Below, in pieces: positions 21,691 through 32,671 of a DNA stretch of 64,000 nucleotides (position 1 is the first letter of the stretch; every line of letters starts with the position of its first letter). The notes under the pieces were generated by a model. The model made no database searches, was not told where the DNA came from, and was given only the letters and a program-made list of their open reading frames with translations. Position numbers and translations under genes: made by a program. Origin of the DNA: an uncultured Alphaproteobacteria bacterium (GTDB taxonomy: Bacteria > Pseudomonadota > Alphaproteobacteria > CAAHEQ01 > UBA3637). The stretch lies in NCBI GenBank assembly GCA_944392795.1, contig CALXXX010000034.1, forward strand, positions 8,995 to 72,994, read 5' to 3'.

Positions 21691-24228
21691 TCAAGAAAAG
21701 GAAAGGGCTTTTGAAACAGATTCCTGTAAATTAACGGATAAATCAGGTGTTTTTAAAATACGCGTTAATTCATTTTTCATAAGAGTCCTTCTGTTTTTAT
21801 CAAAGAATTTCCAACGTGTTAAAGGTCTGACTAAGCTTTCAGCTATTTGTGGATTTAAAGCATTCAGCTCTATAACATAGTCAGCAATAAGGGCATATCC
21901 TTTACCATCTGGTCTATGGAAAGCTTTTAAATTATGCGAAAAACTACCTAATAAAGCTCGAACTTTGTTCGGGTTTGTAAGAATAAAAGCAGAACTTTGT
22001 GCCAGACGACGAACAGTATCTATTACATTCTCATTTTCTTCAGACGCCTGTAAAGCAAGCCACTTGTTGATAACAATATGATCATCTTTATATTTGTTAT
22101 AAAAATCTTCCAGTGCTTCTTCTTTTCCCTTCAGTTGATTATTTATTAACGCTGAAAGAGCAGCAATACGGTCTGTTAAATTGTCTGAGGTTTGATATTG
22201 AATAAAGGCCTCTCCCTTTCCAAGTAGAGATAAATAGCTCAAGGCTACATTTTTTAGAGCACGTTTTCCTGCTTGCTCAAAAAGAGGCGAATAGGGTTTT
22301 TCTGTTTTCATTTCATCATACAGTTTTTCCAAATCCTTTTGATATTTTTGAGCAAAAGCCTTTCTTAATGTTTTGCGTGCCTTTAAAATACCCTCTATAT
22401 CAAAGATTTGTAATTTTTCTCCTACATATGTTTCCGAGGGAAAAATGAGAGCTCGAGCAACAAAAGCCGGATCTGCTTTTGCTAATTTTAAGTAAGTTCC
22501 AAAGGCTTCCAATAGCTCATTTCGAACAGACATATCTTTCTTTTCTACCATTTCAATCATGCATTGAGTAGCATACTCTTGTCCAACCTCATATCGATTG
22601 AATAAATCTGTGTCATGTTGAATGAGGCAAAGTCTTTCTTTATCGGTGTAGTTTATATTTAGAGACACTGGAGCCGTAAAGTCGCGGTTAATAGAGAGAA
22701 TAGGTTTTTCCGAAAAGTCGGAAAAGGTGAATGTTTGTTCATTTTGAGTTAACAGAAGAAGTTGATGATGTCTTTCGTTGCCAGAAGAATCTAATAATCC
22801 AATTTCAAGAGGAATCATAAAAGGCTCGGAGCAATTCTTTATTTCTTGCTTTAATTTTATAGAATAAGTTTTTGATTTATAATCATATTTTTCTTCTACA
22901 GAGACTGTCGGTCGACCGGCAATACTATACCAGCGCATAAATTGAGAAAGATCTTTTTGATTAGCATCTTCGATACACTTCACAAACTCATCAATTGTAA
23001 CTGCTTGACCATCGTGACGAGAAAAATATAAATCACATCCTTTTCTAAATCCCTCTTTGCCAACAATTTTTTGCTGCATACGGATGAGTTCTGCACCTTT
23101 GTCATAAACAGTCGTTGTATAAAAATTTTCGATTGTTGCAAAAGATTCAGGACGTACGGGATGAGCCAAAGGACCATCATCTTCCGGAAATTGATATTGC
23201 TTTAATAAAGCAACATCATCCATTCGTTTTACAACGGCGGAACGCATATCGGCGGTAAAGCTTTGATCACGAAAAACAGTAAAGCCTTCCTTTAGTGAAA
23301 GGTTAAACCAGTCTCGCGCCGTGACACGATCTCCACTCCAGTTATGGAAATATTCATGACCAACAACGCCTTCAACATATTCAAAAGTGGCATCTGTCGC
23401 TGTTTGAGAATCTGCTAGCAGACAAGTATCATTGAAAATATTTAAGCTTTTATTTTCCATCGCTCCGGCATTAAAATCACTAATAGCAACGATATTGAAT
23501 AAATCCAAATCGTATTCACGACCAAAAGCTTCCTCATCCCATTTCATGGCACGTTTTAAGCTTTCCATAGCCCACTGTAAACGCTCTTGTTTTCCTTGTT
23601 CGCACCAGATTTTAAGAGTGACATGACGGCCCGATGAAGTGGTATAAAAATCTTCTATATGAGCTAAATTTCCCGCAACCAAAGCAAATAGATAAGATGG
23701 CTTTTTAAAAGGATCTTCCCAAATAACAGTTCCTTCGTCTTCATAAATTTTATTTCCATTGGAAAGTAAAACAGGGTATTTTTTTCTGTCCGCATGAATA
23801 GTTACCTTAAAGGGAGCCATAATATCTGGATGATCCGGATAATAGGTAATGGTTCTAAAGCCTTCCGGTTCACATTGCGTGGCTAATCCGATATTGGTTG
23901 CATAAAGACCGGATAAACGAGTATTTTCTTTCGGATTTATTTGAGTTTCTATATCTAAAATAAATTCTTCTGGTAAATTCGTTAGAGTAAGGCCCTCTGA
24001 ATCTAATTGATACTCTTTTTCAGATAATTCTCTGTTATTGAGGGCAATGCGGTTCAGCTTTAAATATTTACCATCTAGTCGAAGAGGAGCTGTTTTATCT
24101 GCGCTTATTCTTTTTAAGCACATATGATTTTTAACGATTGTTTGTTTTTCATCTAATGTAAAATCTAATTCTACAGCTTCAACTGCATAAGTTGGAGCTT
24201 GATAATCTTTACGGTATGTTATTTTCAT
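21691..24228 (-). CDS. pepN: aminopeptidase N
   Basis: GAMEN, HEYFH..LKE, NPNKVRAL. Confidence 0.97.
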   Translation of the reverse strand: MKITYRKDYQAPTYAVEAVELDFTLDEKQTIVKNHMCLKRISADKTAPLRLDGKYLKLNRIALNNRELSEKEYQLDSEGLTLTNLPEEFILDIETQINPKENTRLSGLYATNIGLATQCEPEGFRTITYYPDHPDIMAPFKVTIHADRKKYPVLLSNGNKIYEDEGTVIWEDPFKKPSYLFALVAGNLAHIEDFYTTSSGRHVTLKIWCEQGKQERLQWAMESLKRAMKWDEEAFGREYDLDLFNIVAISDFNAGAMENKSLNIFNDTCLLADSQTATDATFEYVEGVVGHEYFHNWSGDRVTARDWFNLSLKEGFTVFRDQSFTADMRSAVVKRMDDVALLKQYQFPEDDGPLAHPVRPESFATIENFYTTTVYDKGAELIRMQQKIVGKEGFRKGCDLYFSRHDGQAVTIDEFVKCIEDANQKDLSQFMRWYSIAGRPTVSVEEKYDYKSKTYSIKLKQEIKNCSEPFMIPLEIGLLDSSGNERHHQLLLLTQNEQTFTFSDFSEKPILSINRDFTAPVSLNINYTDKERLCLIQHDTDLFNRYEVGQEYATQCMIEMVEKKDMSVRNELLEAFGTYLKLAKADPAFVARALIFPSETYVGEKLQIFDIEGILKARKTLRKAFAQKYQKDLEKLYDEMKTEKPYSPLFEQAGKRALKNVALSYLSLLGKGEAFIQYQTSDNLTDRIAALSALINNQLKGKEEALEDFYNKYKDDHIVINKWLALQASEENENVIDTVRRLAQSSAFILTNPNKVRALLGSFSHNLKAFHRPDGKGYALIADYVIELNALNPQIAESLVRPLTRWKFFDKNRRTLMKNELTRILKTPDLSVNLQESVSKALSFS

Positions 24229-25029: not shown

Positions 25030-26337
25030 GTGACGACATCGTTTTGTTTCGAAAAATATGATTTTAATACAGAGACAGGAAAATTATCTCTTTTTTATCG
25101 TTGTGGTGATTTTCTTTTCGAGGAGAAAATTTTCTTTCCGGGAGCACCTTTTGTCGATTTAAATTTATCACTGGTCAGAAGATGCTGCGAGCTTCTTCAT
25201 ATTGCGGCAGGCATTAGTTATTTTAAAGCTTTGTTGCCTTCTGTCATAGAAATAAAAGCTTACTCTTTAACTCAACAAGAAGCCAACTTTTTTGAAACTT
25301 TTTATGTCGCAGGATTAGGACAGTTTGCTGTTGAAAACGGAATTAATTTACAAGGGAAAATTCATTTTCCCTTTAAGTCGACTCTATCGGAAAAACCGGT
25401 TTATTTAAACTTACCTTCTGAAGCTTTTGTTCCGGTCGGAGGGGGAAAAGATAGTTGTTTGACAATTGAGATGTTAAGAAATGCTCCCATTAAGACAACT
25501 CTTTTTTCCGTTAATACAGCTTCTCCTATAGAAGCGTGTAAAAAAGCCGCGTGTCTTCCAGAGATAACAATTCAACGCGTTTTGTCTCCTCTTTTGTTCG
25601 AAAAGAACCCCTTATTTAAGAACGGGCATGTGCCTATTACAGGAATCATTGCTTTTATTTTGCTTTTGTCAGCCGTTTTATACCGTAAACGATATGTTGT
25701 TATGAGCTGTGAGCGTTCAGCTAATGAAGGAAATTTAATGCAGGGAGAGCTGAATGTTAATCATCAATGGAGCAAATCTATTGAGTTTGAGAAGCGTTTT
25801 TTTGAATTGACGCAACCTATTTTACCTGAATTTCATTATTTTTCTTTATTGCGGCCCTTTTCCGAAATGAAAATTGCCGCATTGTTTAGTCAGAAATGTA
25901 AAGATTATTTTACCGCTTTTACAAGCTGTAATCATGCGTTTCATTTAAATCAAGCTAAAAGGTTGGATAGGTGGTGTGGTGCGTGTGATAAATGTCGTTT
26001 TGTTTTTTTGATGCTAGCTCCTTTTATGGCAAAAGATACTTTAATTAGCTCTATTGGCTTTAATCCGCTTAATGATTTAAAACAAGCAGAAGGTTATTCT
26101 GAACTATTGGGATTTTCAGGGCATAAGCCGTTTGAATGTGTCGGAACGGCTGCCGAATGTCGGTTAGCTTTTTTAAAATTAGGGCAAATGAAAGATTGGA
26201 AAGAGGATGTATTAGTTCAACATTTTTATCCACGGATACAAGACGATCAAGCTTCTTTAGAAAAGGAAGTGTTTGAATATGTTCCATCTGATTTAATACC
26301 AGAGGAGTTTTTTGATGCGTTTAACGGAATTATCTAA
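25030..26337 (+). CDS. murL: UDP-MurNAc-L-Ala-L-Glu epimerase
   Basis: PP-loop PVGGGKDS, NGHVPITG, ERSAN, NHQWSKS, SCN, WCGACDKC, KPFECVG; overlaps a murD-like gene. Confidence 0.9.
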   Translation: MTTSFCFEKYDFNTETGKLSLFYRCGDFLFEEKIFFPGAPFVDLNLSLVRRCCELLHIAAGISYFKALLPSVIEIKAYSLTQQEANFFETFYVAGLGQFAVENGINLQGKIHFPFKSTLSEKPVYLNLPSEAFVPVGGGKDSCLTIEMLRNAPIKTTLFSVNTASPIEACKKAACLPEITIQRVLSPLLFEKNPLFKNGHVPITGIIAFILLLSAVLYRKRYVVMSCERSANEGNLMQGELNVNHQWSKSIEFEKRFFELTQPILPEFHYFSLLRPFSEMKIAALFSQKCKDYFTAFTSCNHAFHLNQAKRLDRWCGACDKCRFVFLMLAPFMAKDTLISSIGFNPLNDLKQAEGYSELLGFSGHKPFECVGTAAECRLAFLKLGQMKDWKEDVLVQHFYPRIQDDQASLEKEVFEYVPSDLIPEEFFDAFNGII

Positions 26338-27589
26338 TTTAAAAATCGCTGTTTGGGGAAAAGGAAGAGAAGGAGAAGCTTTAAAGCGTTTCTTCGATGA
26401 ACATGGTATAAAGTTCGATTGGCTTGATGGAAATAATGTTGATTTATCTTCTTTTAATGTTGTTTTTAAAAGTCCGGGTATTAGTCTTTATTTACCTATT
26501 ATACAAGAAGCCAAAGAGAAGGGCGTTCAATTTTTATCAGGAACAAATTTGTATTTGATGAATAATCGCCCTCGTTTAAAAAGAATTGCCGTAACGGGAA
26601 CAAAAGGGAAAAGTACGACTTCTTCCTTAATCGCGCATGTTTTAACAGGAATGGGTTTTAAAACAGGACTCGGGGGTAATATTGGTGTTCCGTTGATTTC
26701 TTTATGGGGGAAAAAATTAGATTATTTAGTCGCGGAGCTATCTAGTTATCAATGTGCGGATCTGACAGAACCGTTTGATATGAGTATCGTTGTTAATTTA
26801 TATCCGGAACATGTGGATTGGCATGGTTCTCACGAACAATATTATAATGATAAAATAAATTTATTAAAAATTCGTCATTCTGCTCAAATCGCTTTTTTGA
26901 ACGCTCAAAATGATTTGTCTATGCGTTATGCTCAAAAATTGGCAAATGTTATTTTATTTAATAATACAGAAGGGATTCATATAGAGAACGGATGGTTTTA
27001 TGACGCTTCACAAAAGTTATTTGAAACATCACAAATTACTAACTTAAAAGGTCAGCATAATTTAGAAAACATTTGTGCCGTTTTAAGCGTTGTTAAAGCG
27101 TTAGGTCTACCTTTAAAGGGAATTGAAATTTTGCTGAACTCTTTTCAACCACTTCCTCATCGTTTACAGACGATTGCTGAAATAAAAGGTGTTTGCTTTG
27201 TTGATGACAGTATTTCAACAACTCCTGAAACGGCTGTCGCTGCGTTAAAAGCTTTTGAAGGTCGGAAAATTTTTCTTCTCGTCGGAGGTTTTGAACGTCA
27301 GCAGGACTATCAGATTTTATTAGAGTATGTTCAACAACATCCAACTATTTATTTGTTTACTTTGCCAGATACAGGAGAGCGTATTTATCAAGAAGCGCTG
27401 AATAGAAAAATTAAGACACAAAAGTGTAGTTCTATCGCTGATGCAGTTAAACAAGTGCAACAACAAGCTGTTTCAGGCGATGTTGTTCTTTTATCTCCCG
27501 GAGCGCCGAGCTATCATCTTTATCACTCTTTTGAAGAGCGAGGAGAAGATTTTAAACAGTGTATTGAAAAATATTTTAAGTTGAAATAA
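26315..27589 (+). CDS. murD2: Mur ligase, MurD2-type (L-Glu adding)
   Basis: WGKGREG, TGTKGKSTT, ELSSYQ, EHVDWH, DDSISTTP, LLSPGAPS; coupled to murL. Confidence 0.85.
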   Translation: MRLTELSNLKIAVWGKGREGEALKRFFDEHGIKFDWLDGNNVDLSSFNVVFKSPGISLYLPIIQEAKEKGVQFLSGTNLYLMNNRPRLKRIAVTGTKGKSTTSSLIAHVLTGMGFKTGLGGNIGVPLISLWGKKLDYLVAELSSYQCADLTEPFDMSIVVNLYPEHVDWHGSHEQYYNDKINLLKIRHSAQIAFLNAQNDLSMRYAQKLANVILFNNTEGIHIENGWFYDASQKLFETSQITNLKGQHNLENICAVLSVVKALGLPLKGIEILLNSFQPLPHRLQTIAEIKGVCFVDDSISTTPETAVAALKAFEGRKIFLLVGGFERQQDYQILLEYVQQHPTIYLFTLPDTGERIYQEALNRKIKTQKCSSIADAVKQVQQQAVSGDVVLLSPGAPSYHLYHSFEERGEDFKQCIEKYFKLK

Positions 27590-27646
27590 AAAGATTGACA
27601 AAGCCATTTTTATTTGAGATAGTAAAAAAAGAAAAGGAAAATAAAT

Positions 27647-27724
27647 ATGCGTTTTATCAATAAAACTTTGAACCTACTACTACTAGAATTTGATATCAAA
27701 TCCTGGAGGGGTTCACATATTTAG
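27647..27724 (+). CDS. leucine attenuator leader peptide (25 aa)
   Basis: MRFINKTLNLLLLEFDIKSWRGSHI*; CTA x4 at 27674-27685; SD AAAGGA; TTGACA at 27595-27600. Confidence 0.85.
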   Translation: MRFINKTLNLLLLEFDIKSWRGSHI

Positions 27725-27778
27725 TATTTAATTAGATTTTACTGAACCAAGCACTTCCTCCGGGAAGTGCTTTTTTTA
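27705..27778 (+). promoter_or_regulatory. attenuator: antiterminator/terminator pair
   Basis: Terminator AAGCACTTCC-TCCG-GGAAGTGCTT+T run (27749-27777); alternative pairing of GGAGG/GGTTCA (27705-27715) with TGAACC (27743-48) and CCTCC (27757-61). Confidence 0.85.
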
Positions 27779-27797
27779 TATTGAAAGGAAAATAAGA

Positions 27798-28124
27798 ATG
27801 GAAGTTAACATTGAAGGTGCAAAAAAAGCAGACATTATTTATGAAGAGTTTCGGAGAAGTATGTTCTTAGGAATGGAAAAAGAGTTTGAAACCCATTTTA
27901 ATCAGCCTGGGAACGAAGCTCAAATGTTGGCTAATATGGTTGTTGCTCGAGCGCTGTTAACGGGATGTATGCCTTATCAGGAAAGTCATATTCCTCAAGC
28001 TATGCGATCGGTGGCTGCGGAATTCCAACCTTATGTGGATACTGTTGAAGAACATTATCCGCACCATTCTATAAATGATAAAATCAAAAAAGTGATAGAG
28101 TTGCATCAAGCTCATCAAAAATAG
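27798..28124 (+). CDS. hypothetical protein downstream of Leu attenuator
   Basis: SD AAAGGA, 108-aa ORF, no family recognised. Confidence 0.75.
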   Translation: MEVNIEGAKKADIIYEEFRRSMFLGMEKEFETHFNQPGNEAQMLANMVVARALLTGCMPYQESHIPQAMRSVAAEFQPYVDTVEEHYPHHSINDKIKKVIELHQAHQK

Positions 28125-28203
28125 TTTTTTGATTTTCTATTGCCAATCTGAAAAAAATTAGCTACAACTGTAAAAAAGCATTTATAGGATTAAAGGGGGC
28201 TAA

Positions 28204-28383
28204 ATGATAAGTTATGGTTGGATGTTAACTTTGGTTGGAATGGGAAGTGTTTTCGCTTTCTTATGGTTATTGATGCTTGTCATTCAGTTTTCCTCTTGGA
28301 TTATCCGCAAATACGAATCGTCTAGCGAAGGATTAGACAAAGTTGCTTTAGCCATCGCTGTTGGCTTGAAGGAGAGGAAATAA
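28204..28383 (+). CDS. oadG: oxaloacetate decarboxylase gamma subunit (59 aa)
   Basis: Manual translation MISYGWMLTLVGMGSVFAFLWLLMLVI...VALAIAVGLKERK*; single TM; directly before oadA; below ORF-track cutoff. Confidence 0.9.
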   Translation: MISYGWMLTLVGMGSVFAFLWLLMLVIQFSSWIIRKYESSSEGLDKVALAIAVGLKERK

Positions 28384-28384
28384 A

Positions 28385-30169
28385 ATGGCAAAAAAGAAAA
28401 TCAAGTTAACTTGTACAGCATTTAGAGACGGTTTTCAATCGGTATATGGTTCTCGTGTTCTCTCTAAGGATTTTTTGCCAATTGTTAAAATGGCACGGCA
28501 AGCTGGTATTGATCGCTTTGAGTCGGGCGGCGGAGCTAGTTTTCAGTCTGCCTTTTTTTATCTCAACGAAAATGCTTTTGATGTGATGGATGCTTTTCGT
28601 GAGGCAGCAGGACCTGATGCTCATTTACAAACTTTAGCACGAGGTATCAATGTCGTTGGTTTAGACAGTCAAAGTTCTGATATTATTCGTTTGCATGCTC
28701 GGTTGTTTAAAAAACATGGCGTCAGTATGATACGCAATTTTGACGCGTTGAATGATCCTGAAAATTTAGCTTTTAGCGGACAATGCATTGTCGATGCCGG
28801 TTTGGAGCATCAAATTTGTATTGCAATGATGTCTTTACCTCCGGGAGCAACCGGAGCGCATACCCCTGATTTCTATGAAGAAACTTTGAAAAAAATTATA
28901 AAATCGAAGATACCATTCCATTCTTTATGTTTTAAGGACGCTTCTGGTACCAGTGTTCCAGCAGTTGTTTTTGAAACTATTCAAAGAGCCCGTAAACTTC
29001 TTGGAAAAAAAACAATGATAGAATTTCATTCTCATGAAACAGCAGGAGTGGGAACGGCTTGTTATTTGGCTGCCATTCAAGCCGGTGCCGATATCGTTGA
29101 TTTATCAATGGCTCCTGTTTCTGGCGGAACGTGTCAACCGGATATTGCAACCATGTGGCATGCGTTGCGTCAAACAGATTATGAGTTAGAAGTCGATGTT
29201 GATGCGGTTATGAAAGTTGAAGATGCTTTTAAGGAAGCTTTAAAAGATTATTTTTTACCACCGGAAGCCTTACGAGTTGAACCGATGATACCATGGTCTC
29301 CTATGCCTGGAGGAGCATTGACAAGTAATACGCAAATGCTTCGTGATAATGGCATTATGGATAAGTATAGTGAAATTATTAAAGCAATGGAGGAGGTTGT
29401 TCGAAAAGGCGGCTTTGGAACTTCTGTCACTCCTGTTTCTCAATTTTATTTCCAGCAGGCATTTAATAATGTCATGAGCGGACCTTGGAAAAAAATTGCG
29501 GAAGGATATGGTAAAATGGTTTTAGGATATTTCGGAAAAACACCTAAAACACCAGATAAAGAAGTTATAAAAATTGCTTCAGAACAGTTGAATTTGCCTC
29601 CGACAAAAGAGTCTCCTTTGGTCTTGAATGATGCTAATCCGAACAAGGGTATTCAACATGCTAAAACGATTTTAAAAGAAAATAATCTGCCAGAAACAGA
29701 TGAAAATATCTTTATTGCTGCTACTTGTGGAGATAAGGGAATTACTTTCCTTAAAGGACAAGGAAAGGTGATGGTTCGATATAAAGAAACTGAAACTCCT
29801 AAAAAAATGGCATCTTCCTATAAGATAAATATAGAAGGGAAGGATTTTGATGTTGTGTTTACTTCTTCTGGAGCAGAAGTGAATGGAAAGGCCTATGAAT
29901 ATCATCTAGAAGAAGAAAAAAAATCAACATTACCTGTTCAAGCATCTTTAGCAGGAGGACAAGCTATTACAGCTCCGATGTTGGGAACAATTACAAAAGT
30001 TCTCGTTCAAAAAGAGGATATGGTTAAACGTGGTCAAACACTGTTTGTGATTGAAGTTATGAAAATGGAAAATGAAATCAAAGCACCAGCCGATGGTCGA
30101 ATAACAGAGATTGTTATTTCGGCAGGAACACAAGTTCAAGCTGGTCAATTACTTGCGAAAATGGGGTAA
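28385..30169 (+). CDS. oadA: oxaloacetate decarboxylase alpha subunit
   Basis: RDGFQS, KDASG, HSH, PGG, VTPVSQ, biotin site VMKM. Confidence 0.92.
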   Translation: MAKKKIKLTCTAFRDGFQSVYGSRVLSKDFLPIVKMARQAGIDRFESGGGASFQSAFFYLNENAFDVMDAFREAAGPDAHLQTLARGINVVGLDSQSSDIIRLHARLFKKHGVSMIRNFDALNDPENLAFSGQCIVDAGLEHQICIAMMSLPPGATGAHTPDFYEETLKKIIKSKIPFHSLCFKDASGTSVPAVVFETIQRARKLLGKKTMIEFHSHETAGVGTACYLAAIQAGADIVDLSMAPVSGGTCQPDIATMWHALRQTDYELEVDVDAVMKVEDAFKEALKDYFLPPEALRVEPMIPWSPMPGGALTSNTQMLRDNGIMDKYSEIIKAMEEVVRKGGFGTSVTPVSQFYFQQAFNNVMSGPWKKIAEGYGKMVLGYFGKTPKTPDKEVIKIASEQLNLPPTKESPLVLNDANPNKGIQHAKTILKENNLPETDENIFIAATCGDKGITFLKGQGKVMVRYKETETPKKMASSYKINIEGKDFDVVFTSSGAEVNGKAYEYHLEEEKKSTLPVQASLAGGQAITAPMLGTITKVLVQKEDMVKRGQTLFVIEVMKMENEIKAPADGRITEIVISAGTQVQAGQLLAKMG

Positions 30170-30175
30170 GAAATT

Positions 30176-31354
30176 ATGTGGGATAAATTGCAAGGATTGT
30201 TCCAGGAAACAGGGCTTTATGGCTTCTTCTCATCTTATGAGGTTATGCCTGGAGCTTTGATGCCGGAAGGGCTTGGACAACTTTTAATGATTGTCGTATG
30301 TTGCGTTTTATTGTACCTTGGAATTGCCAAGAAATTTGAACCACTTTTATTAGTTCCTATCGCGTTTGGCGGAATTTTAGCTAATATTCCTTTTGCCGGA
30401 TTATCTGACCCCGGCGGTTTATTGGATGTCCTATACCGTATGGGAATTGAAAACACTTTGTTTCCTTTATTGATTTTTATGGGGGTTGGTGCAATGACCG
30501 ACTTTGGTCCTTTGATTGCCAATCCAAAAACGCTTTTACTTGGAGCTGCGGCGCAATTTGGTATCTTTGGAACGGTTTTAGGTGCCCTTTACTTGGGAAG
30601 TGTTTGGGATGCTGTTGATTTTTCTTTAGCAGAGGCTGCTTCGATTGGAATTATCGGTGGCGCTGATGGTCCTACTTCCATTTTCTTGACAACTAAGTTA
30701 GCACCTCATTTATTAGCGGCTGTTGCAGTCGCAGCTTATTCTTATATGGCTTTGGTTCCAATTATTCAGCCGCCGGTTATGAGAGTATTAACAACACAAA
30801 AAGAGCGTCAAATTCAAATGAAACAGCTTAGGGAAGTTAGTCGTTTAGAAAAGATTTTGTTTCCGTTGATAGTTTTATTCTTGTGTATCTTATTTTTCCC
30901 AAGTGCGACTCCGTTGATTGGCATGCTCATGTTTGGTAATTTATTGAGAGAGAGTGGTGTGACTGCTCGTTTATCTGATACAGCCCAAAATGCACTCATC
31001 AATACGGTGACTGTTTTTTTGGGTCTTTCTGTTGGTTCTAAGATGATAGCAGAGAATTTTTTAGTGACTAAAACGCTTTTGATTTTACTCTTAGGCGTTA
31101 TTGCTTTTATTTTCGGAACAGCATCAGGAGTTCTCATGGCTAAATTGATGAACCTCTTTTCAAAAGATAAGATTAATCCTTTAATCGGATCAGCCGGCGT
31201 ATCTGCAGTTCCTATGGCCGCGCGTGTTTCAAATCGTTTGGGACAGGAAGCAGATCCGTCTAATTTCCTATTGATGCATGCAATGGGACCAAATGTGGCC
31301 GGTGTTATTGGCTCAGCTGTAGCAGCGGGAATTTTATTAACATTAGTGGGGTAA
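30176..31354 (+). CDS. oadB: Na+-translocating decarboxylase beta subunit
   Basis: [39 protein letters not shown]. Confidence 0.95.
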
Positions 31355-31357
31355 AAG

Positions 31358-32671
31358 ATGGAAAACACACAAGAAGTCATGTCAAATTTGAATTATTTAT
31401 TCGAAAGTGGACAATATGAGGAACTGTTAAATCAATCAGAACGTTTTTTAACAGAGGATCCACGTTTTCCTGCTTTGCATGTATTTAAAGGTGATGCATT
31501 ACGCGCATTAAGTCGACCAGAAGAGGCTTTGGATGCGTATCGTGAAGCTATTTTATTGGACCCCAATGATGCTTTGGCACGAACAAATTATGCTTCTCTT
31601 TTATTTGATCAAAAAGATTATGCAAATGCTTTAAATGCTTCTGATTCTGCTATTTTTATTGACCCTGCCTTTACTGATCCTTATATTGTTTCCGGTAATG
31701 TTTTGTCTGCTTTAGGATATGCAGATCAGGCTGTTTTCGCTTATCATCGAGCTTTTTCTTTAGATGAAGGCAATAAAGAATTAGGAGAATATGTTGCAGA
31801 ACTTTATACGGAGCAACAAATGCTAGATCAAGCGATGCCCGTTTACTTTACTTTAGCTGAAAAAGAACCGGATAATGCAGCTTTACAATTAAAAATTGGG
31901 GGTGCTTTATTATTCTCCTTACAAAATGGAGCTTCTTTTGATGCTGTTTCTCAATATGCTTCCACTTGGGAAAAAACATTTAATAATAATTCGCTTATTC
32001 ATTCTTTTGCAGAAGAAATTAAGACTAATAATGTGAATTATAATCCTTTAACTGTTGAGCATCTGACGGCTTTTTTTGATACTTCTGCGGCGGATTATGA
32101 TACAGCAATGATGGGCGAGGGGTATGCTATTCCGGATCTGTTAAAAGAAGCTATGGAAAAGAATTTTTCTAATCGTACAGATTTAGAAATATTAGATGTC
32201 GGATGCGGAACGGGATTATGTGGGATCGTTGTAAAGCCTTATTCGGCCTCAGAAGGATTACATGGTGTTGATCTTTCTTCTAAAATGTTAGATCTCGCTT
32301 ATGATAAAAAAATTTATGATAAAGTCTTTAACGGAGATTTTGTTAGCTATTTTGCTCAAAATGACCGAAAATATGATTTAATCTTAGCTGGAGATGTTTT
32401 GCCGTATAATGCTGATTTTGCCGCTGCTCTTTCTTCTATTAAGACAGGATTAAAAGATAAAGGGTATTTAATGTTCAGTTTGCGCTTGAATCAATTTAAT
32501 GAAGAAGAAGCGGTCTTTTATCCACCATTTAATGAAATTTTTAATAAAACGGCTGTTGAGCATATTTTGAAGGAAAACGGTTTTATTCTTGTTTCAGAGA
32601 CACCGGTTGATGAAGAAGGGCAAAATTTAAAGGCTCCCGAATATTTTTATGTAGTTCAAAAGATAGCATAA
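31358..32671 (+). CDS. TPR-repeat protein with C-terminal SAM methyltransferase
   Basis: TPR-like helices; FD..AADYD; LDVGCGTG; GVDLS..ML. Confidence 0.9.
   Translation: MENTQEVMSNLNYLFESGQYEELLNQSERFLTEDPRFPALHVFKGDALRALSRPEEALDAYREAILLDPNDALARTNYASLLFDQKDYANALNASDSAIFIDPAFTDPYIVSGNVLSALGYADQAVFAYHRAFSLDEGNKELGEYVAELYTEQQMLDQAMPVYFTLAEKEPDNAALQLKIGGALLFSLQNGASFDAVSQYASTWEKTFNNNSLIHSFAEEIKTNNVNYNPLTVEHLTAFFDTSAADYDTAMMGEGYAIPDLLKEAMEKNFSNRTDLEILDVGCGTGLCGIVVKPYSASEGLHGVDLSSKMLDLAYDKKIYDKVFNGDFVSYFAQNDRKYDLILAGDVLPYNADFAAALSSIKTGLKDKGYLMFSLRLNQFNEEEAVFYPPFNEIFNKTAVEHILKENGFILVSETPVDEEGQNLKAPEYFYVVQKIA

Follow-up and report, generated by a model that had tools for sequence, protein, structure and literature searches.

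The window analysed in this study is a stretch of 64,000 nucleotides (nt) from the genome of an uncultured alphaproteobacterium (contig C34, CALXXX010000034.1, positions 8995-72994). The element of interest within it is a promoter-proximal region with the layout of a leucine (Leu)-responsive transcription attenuator, followed by a small open reading frame (ORF) for a protein of 108 amino acids (aa), here called p108, and by the oxaloacetate decarboxylase genes oadG, oadA and oadB. The genome, G000, comprises 1.29 Mb with 37% G+C, is distributed over 41 contigs and is 99.4% complete. Comparisons drew on a pool of 80 genomes of one alphaproteobacterial family; G001 and G002 are congeners of G000 (genus g1), and genus g14 includes G015, G024, G046 and G052. 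An earlier note on this DNA had described the region as a Leu-sensing attenuator that controls a protein of no recognisable family instead of leu/ilv genes.

Anatomy of the putative attenuator locus

The features of the locus are collected in Table 1. The parts named by the earlier note, namely a TTGACA promoter, a Shine-Dalgarno (SD) sequence, a 25-aa leader with four CTA codons and a TTG two codons before them, and mutually exclusive antiterminator and terminator hairpins, were all recovered, the hairpins both in the predicted folds and after refolding with a ribosome footprint. The stop codon of the leader sits 7 nt past region 2, the segment able to pair either with the Leu codons or with the terminator, and the antiterminator occupies the terminator loop together with the end of its 5' arm and the start of its 3' arm. 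The terminator itself is the strongest terminator-like site within positions 26500-32000. Promoter-like TTGAC(A/G) sequences were also seen by eye at the equivalent spot upstream of the leaders in G002, G052, G024, G046, G045 and G023. The same note had spoken of a single ORF of no recognisable family; this holds for its 108-aa product, which has no Pfam or NCBIfam match, and does not hold for its isolation, as oadG begins 80 bases after the p108 stop (28124) with zero terminator-like sites between them.

The leader RNA is predicted to fold at -38.3 kcal/mol, compared with -24.2 +/- 3.4 kcal/mol for shuffled sequences (z -4.13; 0 of 200 shuffles equal). CTA makes up 5.7% of the Leu codons in G000 (801 long ORFs), and the (CTA)4 run is unique in the 1.29 Mb genome, neither strand having another run of at least four CTA. 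An estimate from base composition gives approximately 0.3 such 12-mers per genome by chance, so that the run alone is weak evidence and the case rests on its conservation. Four tRNA-Leu genes were identified with ARAGORN, one of which is a tRNA-Leu(UAG) gene. The same program found 41 tRNA genes in G000, the tRNA-Leu anticodons being CAG, TAA, TAG and GAG. A CAA anticodon is absent; since TTG ranks second among the Leu codons of the genome, either the TAA tRNA reads it or a gene is unassembled. One study (PMC1183508) explains why isoacceptor choice sets the sensitivity of an attenuator; for the leu attenuator of Salmonella it names CUA as the control codon and cites an experiment in which sensitivity fell when CUG took its place.

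A crude scan of G000 for further attenuators, which looked for strong terminators preceded by a short ORF containing a residue run, returned nothing else convincing. Two weaker matches of the covariance model described below, located on contigs C19 and C27 of G000, were rejected as attenuators, being ordinary gene-end terminators.

Table 1. Features of the putative attenuator locus and of the genes downstream, in positions of the window
Feature	Position	Strand	Basis or remark
Promoter P1: -35 TTGACA (27595-27600), 17-nt spacer, TG-extended -10 GATAGT	27595..27623	+	10/12 consensus matches
SD sequence AAGGA of the leader ORF, 8 nt ahead of ATG	27634..27638	+	Read from sequence
Leader ORF, 25 codons + TAG (27722-27724)	27647..27724	+	ORF listing
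Control codons TTG (27668-27670), AAC, CTA x4 (27674-27685)	27668..27685	+	Read from sequence
Hairpin 1:2 (anti-antiterminator), Leu-codon stretch with region 2	27669..27715	+	Minimum free energy (MFE) fold, centroid, RNAalifold consensus
Antiterminator 2:3: 27701-27709/27757-27765 + 27710-27715/27743-27748	27701..27765	+	Refolding with ribosome footprint
Intrinsic terminator 3:4: 10-bp stem (27749-27772), TCCG loop, T7 tract	27749..27777	+	-16.5 kcal/mol
Small ORF p108, 108 aa, own SD sequence	27798..28124	+	Immediate cargo; Leu-poor, predicted five-helix
Promoter-like site P2: TTGCCA, 17 nt, TACAAC, ahead of oadG	28140..28168	+	Read by eye
oadG (oxaloacetate decarboxylase gamma chain)	28204..28383	+	Pfam OAD_gamma, E 3.8e-10, 40.7 bits (cut-off 27)
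oadA (carboxyltransferase + biotinyl carrier)	28385..30169	+	Pfam PYC_OADA 104.2, Biotin_lipoyl 69.5, HMGL-like
oadB (Na+-pumping beta subunit)	30176..31354	+	Pfam OAD_beta, E 1.1e-163, 544.7

Leaders in related genomes and predicted folding of the switch

Both congeners, G001 (97% protein identity) and G002 (59%), retain the promoter, the leader, the terminator and the ORF. The terminator of G002 carries one-sided changes that preserve its pairing, and the Leu run of its leader reads CTG CTA CTA CTG, differing from that of G000 by synonymous changes. The same kind of element was found before a small ORF in nine further genomes of the family, from genera g1, g11, g14 and g16. The DNA upstream of oadB was compared in 40 family genomes; in g14, G052 (106 aa) and G024 (87 aa) possess a leader with a Leu run, a terminator and a small ORF before oadG, and the region upstream of oadG in G015 has neither leader nor small ORF. 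Leader and small ORF are kept together in G001, G002, g14 and g11, a co-occurrence that the earlier note had proposed to look for. That note had also regarded an unconserved Leu run as an argument against its reading; the run is kept in relatives.

A covariance model (CM) built from five small-ORF leaders was run over the 80 genomes and 18 matches were inspected, of which five lie before small ORFs (G046, G045, G023, G051 and G017), eight before a leuA-family gene and five are plain terminators. The leuA leaders of the family were thus found by a model of small-ORF leaders alone. Among the upstream regions of eight LeuA_dimer genes, all five belonging to the long "LeuA2" type, including that of G015, carry a Leu leader and a terminator; the three citramalate-synthase-like genes do not. 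The genes of G078 and G015 match the NCBIfam model for 2-isopropylmalate synthase LeuA2 with 506.7 and 530.0 bits (cut-off 500). A similar leader stands directly before leuA in at least 13 relatives, and the small-ORF and leuA leaders can be aligned over their Leu runs, region 2 and terminators. The genes upstream of the leaders vary, being a cysteine (Cys)-rich ORF in G002, divergent genes in G045 and a tRNA in the leuA-linked case of G015. By its sequence, the window element belongs to a group of leu attenuators that is spread across the family and usually has leuA as cargo. The leader-controlled leuA of G015 (L126, G015:C20, 6849-8375) stands alone, the next genes converging on it from the opposite strand, and no leuB, leuC or leuD lies adjacent to it.

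The two kinds of leaders differ in their codons. CTA accounts for 22 of the 50 Leu codons in nine small-ORF leaders, compared with 21 of 106 in thirteen leuA-linked leaders, and a leader of the small-ORF type has 4-7 Leu codons as opposed to the 7-11, mostly common ones, of the leuA type. In G017 (L093, G017:C67, minus strand, ~1283-1678), a Leu leader and terminator precede a 67-aa ORF without any Leu, which is followed by a 324-aa ORF resembling a membrane protein. Membership of the 67-aa ORF in the p108 family was rejected (hhalign probability 0.3%), and the G017 arrangement resembles an independent second case in which this sensor was re-targeted.

In the free RNA, region 1, containing the Leu codons, is predicted to pair with region 2 (27701-27715), and the terminator 3:4 forms. 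The switch was evaluated by placing a 30-nt ribosome footprint at varied positions and refolding the RNA. When it covered CTA codons 2-4, the MFE structure became the antiterminator, worth -23.6 kcal/mol once position 27766 has been transcribed; when it covered the leader stop codon, the terminator was restored. For a wider comparison, 22 leaders were located by a generic pattern, nine of them before small ORFs and 13 before leuA-family genes. In all 22, the segment adjoining the leader stop pairs with the 5' side of the terminator beyond shuffled sequences (z -2.3 to -6.6; equalled by 0-7 of 300 shuffles), the corresponding value in G000 being z -5.14 with 0 of 300 shuffles. The paired sequences of region 2 and the terminator diverge among genera yet stay complementary. 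A Leu run of at least three is present in 22 of 22 leaders, although the run was also a search criterion and this is not an independent count.

Covariation was assessed on a CM-fitted alignment of the nine small-ORF leaders. In the terminated-state structure, pairing reaches 87.1%, compared with 72.3% in shuffles and 42-57% in slid controls, and 23 of the 35 pairs have changed on both sides, which 0 of 500 shuffles match. Within it, the terminator helix is 93% paired across the nine leaders, with six of ten pairs changed on both sides, and the helices of the 1:2 hairpin are 77% and 92% paired, with compensatory changes present. The nine-pair antiterminator string is paired in 89.6% of 67 cells, the slid controls reaching 40-68%.

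The p108 protein, the host leucine pathway and the neighbouring genes

Searches for relatives of p108 beyond its own group were consistently negative. Six family members searched against Pfam at E up to 1 yielded single-member chance rows only, the p108 profile had 0 matches among PDB sequences at E up to 10, and Foldseek against the PDB gave a best E of 2.0. A wide VIA-align search reached a best Z of 5.8, under the noise level quoted for helical models, and the ESM Atlas offered no usable match. Structure comparison, which the earlier note had suggested, thus gave no fold match, in agreement with its "no recognisable family". A word-indexed search of 5.8 billion proteins retrieved two proteins, both of the same genus, and a profile search of 1.84 billion representatives retrieved only the protein's own cluster; genome contigs yielded two loci, one G001-like and one G002-like, and JGI metagenome contigs, plasmids and phages none.

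Within the family, the small ORFs behind the leader in G000 and eight other leuA-less genomes encode helical proteins of 87-110 aa. The genus profile aligned by hhalign with the ORFs of G052 (E 1.2e-5, probability 81%), G023 (E 9.4e-5, 59%) and G051 (E 4.4e-4, 34%), and the 87-aa ORF of G024 alone was not significant against it (E 0.11). A profile of six small ORFs matches eight of the 80 genomes, all in g1, g14 and g11. An A-x-x-x-G-x-x-P motif, which closes helix 3, is common to the family, and AlphaFold (AF2) produced a five-helix model of p108 with a mean pLDDT (predicted local distance difference test) of 81.4 from only 4 sequences. The ratio of nonsynonymous to synonymous substitutions (dN/dS) is 0.19 for G000-G002, 0.11 for G000-G001 and 0.12 for G024-G046, with dS near saturation in two of the pairs. 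In population contigs from four runs, two runs carry nine substitutions in the ORF, six of them at third codon positions, and the leader and attenuator carry 0 substitutions. By these sequence measures, the p108 ORF is a real gene under purifying selection. A remnant of leuA was considered for the small ORF and rejected (hhalign against G015 LeuA, probability 0.1%). The only variant between P1 and the small ORF is one A missing from the A-run upstream of the leader SD sequence (window position 27632), in two of the four runs.

The small ORFs are poor in Leu, with a content of 0-6.1% and a pooled value of 18 in 667 residues, or 2.7%, over seven lineages. The mean Leu content in G000 is 10.3% and its first percentile 3.5% (809 long ORFs), and the pooled depletion has a binomial P of ~5e-14. 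Such Leu-poverty is expected for a protein made while Leu is short. Only one of the 18 Leu codons is CTA.

The pathway that a leu attenuator would normally serve could not be detected in the host. G000 has no match to LeuA_dimer, to the catalytic model of isopropylmalate synthase (IPMS), to Iso_dh/LeuB or to Aminotran_4/IlvE, models that each match in 13 or 14 of 14 control genomes, and its sole HMGL-like match is OadA. The bacterium, a gut inhabitant present in bird-gut communities, is on its gene content a Leu auxotroph. Since LeuA, LeuB and IlvE went undetected, the element would control something other than leu/ilv genes, as the earlier note had supposed. For branched-chain amino acid transporters, the search covered the families BrnQ and LivH/M and detected neither in G000. 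In the family, an IPMS-family gene occurs in 28 of the 80 genomes, in 0 of the 10 with a small-ORF leader and in 28 of the 70 others. The contrast is sharpest within genus g14, where the leader of G015 precedes leuA and no small ORF is present, whereas in G024, G046 and G052 it precedes a small ORF and leuA is absent.

The remaining genes around the locus can be described briefly. Downstream, the gamma, alpha (carboxyltransferase and biotinyl domain) and beta subunits of OadGAB are clustered, and every subunit exceeds the Pfam cut-offs. The promoter-like site P2 ahead of oadG was not listed by the consensus scan, its -10 element being without the final T. A fusion of tetratricopeptide repeats with a class-I methyltransferase (31358-32671) begins 4 bases past the end of oadB. 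Upstream, a 435-aa ORF (25030-26337) matches NCBIfam MurL (UDP-MurNAc-L-Ala-L-Glu epimerase; E 7e-121, 403.8 bits) under the 700-bit cut-off, and it is overlapped by a Mur-ligase-like gene (26312-27589) with Mur_ligase_M and Mur_ligase_C domains. This pair resembles an alternative route to D-Glu in peptidoglycan, which we take to be the MurD2/MurL route. Large Cys-rich ORFs replace the Mur ligase gene beside the locus in several relatives (L003, 2040-3257 of G002; upstream of oadG in L036 and L039), one example being a 405-aa ORF with dozens of Cys. Farther upstream, an 845-aa ORF on the minus strand (21691-24228) was identified by eye as a candidate aminopeptidase N-like protein; a peptidase of this type would suit an organism that depends on peptides for Leu.

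Proposed mechanism, alternatives and known systems

The locus is likely to represent a leu-type ribosome-mediated (leader-peptide) transcription attenuator that has been re-targeted to a Leu-poor small protein, presumably made when Leu is short. The attenuator reading of the earlier note is supported by structure, conservation and covariation, as well as by the similar leaders directly upstream of leuA in relatives. From the sequence, its folds and its conservation, we infer the following course of events. Transcription would begin at P1, and a ribosome would translate the 25-codon leader. When charged tRNA-Leu(UAG) is ample, the ribosome would reach the TAG at 27722-27724 and cover region 2, so that 3:4 forms and transcription stops at ~27772-27778. 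When Leu is scarce, the ribosome would stall on the four rare CUA codons and block 1:2; region 2 would then pair with region 3 before the 3' arm of the terminator is made, and the polymerase would continue into the 108-aa ORF. Transcription probably runs on into oadGAB, adding to the output of the promoter of oadG itself, because there is no terminator after the p108 ORF. In this arrangement, p108 is probably the primary cargo and oadGAB a secondary beneficiary. Induction of p108 by Leu-tRNA starvation would fit both the purifying selection and the strong Leu depletion of the protein.

Several observations weigh against this interpretation. When full-length RNA was folded with a stalled ribosome and slightly different ends, the MFE structure kept the terminator in nine of nine small-ORF leaders, including that of G000, in which the two states lie ~0.3-2 kcal/mol apart. 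With states so nearly isoenergetic, the choice of the switch must be kinetic, that is, co-transcriptional; a kinetic decision is likewise assumed in the classical attenuation model. A stricter cut without the whole 3' arm left the antiterminators of g14 and g11 weak against shuffles (z -0.2 to -1.8). Only three of the nine antiterminator pairs have changed on both sides, a number reached by 176 of 500 shuffles, and the pair counts as a whole favour structure, the alignment being model-fitted and the antiterminator string being taken from G000. The anti-correlation of small-ORF leaders with leuA has a naive one-sided Fisher P of 0.0096 (0.016 without G017), which is only suggestive among genomes that are kin. 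None of the 16 runs listed was an RNA run with the locus. P2 is only a consensus-like conserved site, so that read-through into oadGAB is presumed, and the role assigned to p108, as a small regulator or adaptor that acts in the cytoplasm in the response to Leu starvation, is a working guess.

Four other explanations were weighed. The one with the most in its favour, though still unlikely, places the true target in oadGAB, so that Leu starvation would raise the Na+-pumping oxaloacetate decarboxylase and the small ORF would be a passenger or an accessory subunit of Oad. The lack of a terminator-like site from 28124 to 28204 agrees with it, as does the order leader, small ORF and oadGAB common to g1 and three g14 genomes. 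However, a promoter-like TTGCAN-17-TAnAAn was seen by eye before oadG in g1, g14 and g11, both where the leader and small ORF are present and where they are absent. OadB is present in 51 of 61 sampled family genomes, and G015 and most others have oadGAB with no leader upstream. Moreover, the leader and small ORF of G045 (g11) lie on a contig other than that of oadB, with no same-strand gene before an opposing ORF, and are effectively monocistronic. A role in trans is less probable still: the terminated leader RNA or the leader peptide would act elsewhere, as do rnTrpL and peTrpL of Sinorhizobium meliloti. Two reports (PMC6614838, PMC7298713) describe attenuator RNAs and leader peptides acting in trans in this alphaproteobacterium, and the lack of substitutions in the leader and attenuator across the four runs would suit such a role. 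Nevertheless, the leader peptide beyond its Leu run differs among genera, and conservation of the downstream ORF with the leader in three genera, under purifying selection, is explained directly by control in cis. The cis and trans readings are compatible and not mutually exclusive.

That the locus is a decaying relic, in which the leader outlived leuA and the 108-aa ORF is spurious or recent and functionless, appears very improbable. G000 is without leuA while relatives have the leader before leuA, and homologues of the ORF are confined to three genera, both as a relic would have it. Against this stand the low dN/dS of 0.11-0.19 in three pairs, the retention of ORF and leader in nine genomes of three genera with different neighbourhoods, the consistent Leu depletion, the confident AF2 fold, the compensatory changes in the hairpins and the absence of similarity to LeuA. 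The same evidence bears on the alternative offered by the earlier note, in which the attenuator outlived a lost operon and was captured. Its idea of origin is borne out in part, the leader being of the leuA kind and its pairing with small ORFs occurring only in leuA-less genomes; decay is not, for leader and ORF form a conserved unit in three genera. The small-ORF leaders may have been derived by duplication of a leuA leader or by transfer. Finally, the arrangement could be fortuitous, with a hairpin that does nothing but terminate the upstream Mur ligase gene and a Leu-codon ORF present by accident. The Mur-ligase-like gene does end at 27589 with no other terminator-like site before 27749, and the composition estimate for (CTA)4 given above would allow for accident, but the unit retains a promoter of its own and is found again after differing neighbours, which leaves this explanation with a negligible likelihood.

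The re-targeted attenuator is a known kind of mechanism, and its novelty lies in the wiring: several genera of a genome-reduced family, having lost leuA, would use a leader of the leuA type to control an orphan protein that is conserved and depleted in Leu, and G017 would use it for a different, Leu-free small ORF. More speculatively, the p108 family could be a dedicated Leu-starvation effector of genome-reduced, Leu-auxotrophic gut Alphaproteobacteria, with this attenuator coupling its synthesis directly to how far the rare tRNA-Leu(UAG) is charged. The sensor of a lost pathway would then have been rewired to a different output, for example scavenging, growth restraint or the energising of uptake, in g1 and g14 possibly together with the Na+ pump OadGAB. 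A textbook device for tuning biosynthesis persists here in bacteria without the pathway, giving a handle on how gut auxotrophs detect and respond to the shortage of a nutrient that they must obtain from outside. The sister genera offer before and after states of the re-use of an RNA sensor for new cargo, and the small protein family has a predictable inducing condition despite its obscure function, which makes it tractable in a surrogate host.

Compared with known systems, the element shares with leuL-leuABCD of E. coli and Salmonella a short leader, consecutive rare CUA codons, the alternative hairpins 1:2, 2:3 and 3:4 and the placement of an intrinsic terminator ahead of the first structural gene. 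It differs in its cargo, a 108-aa unfamilied protein, and in a host without detectable LeuA, LeuB or IlvE. A leu-operon attenuator in the strict sense has leuA or leuABCD as its cargo, as is the case in the relatives and not in the window. An Rfam scan of positions 26500-29500 at E up to 10 found no Leu_leader, the only leader match being to Phe_leader, whose 19.1 bits fall short of the gathering score of 55. Vitreschak et al. reportedly predicted attenuators upstream of leuA in alphaproteobacteria in 2004. Close counterparts are the leuA leaders of the same family (g2, g10, g7 and G015 of g14), in which the Leu run, the terminator, the position of region 2 at the stop codon and the predicted three-hairpin logic correspond to those of the window element. 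Unlike it, they precede 2-isopropylmalate synthase and contain more Leu codons with a lower share of CTA.

Leader ORFs controlling non-biosynthetic genes are known from Salmonella, where mgtL and mgtP, with proline codons, precede mgtA and mgtCBR, and from the Phe leader before pheST. In these cases, as at the present locus, a leader ORF reads the supply of an aminoacyl-tRNA for genes that do not make the amino acid. Those systems, however, operate in prototrophs with cargo of known function, whereas here a Leu auxotroph and an orphan cargo are involved. In the literature on leader-peptide attenuation, a search limited in scope, and so no proof of absence from print, found no amino-acid attenuator retained in an auxotroph. 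Another alphaproteobacterial leader-peptide attenuator with roles beyond the adjacent biosynthetic gene is the rnTrpL/peTrpL system of Sinorhizobium meliloti (PMC6614838, PMC7298713). That system still precedes trpE(G) and acts in trans, whereas at the locus described here the cis cargo itself would have been replaced.

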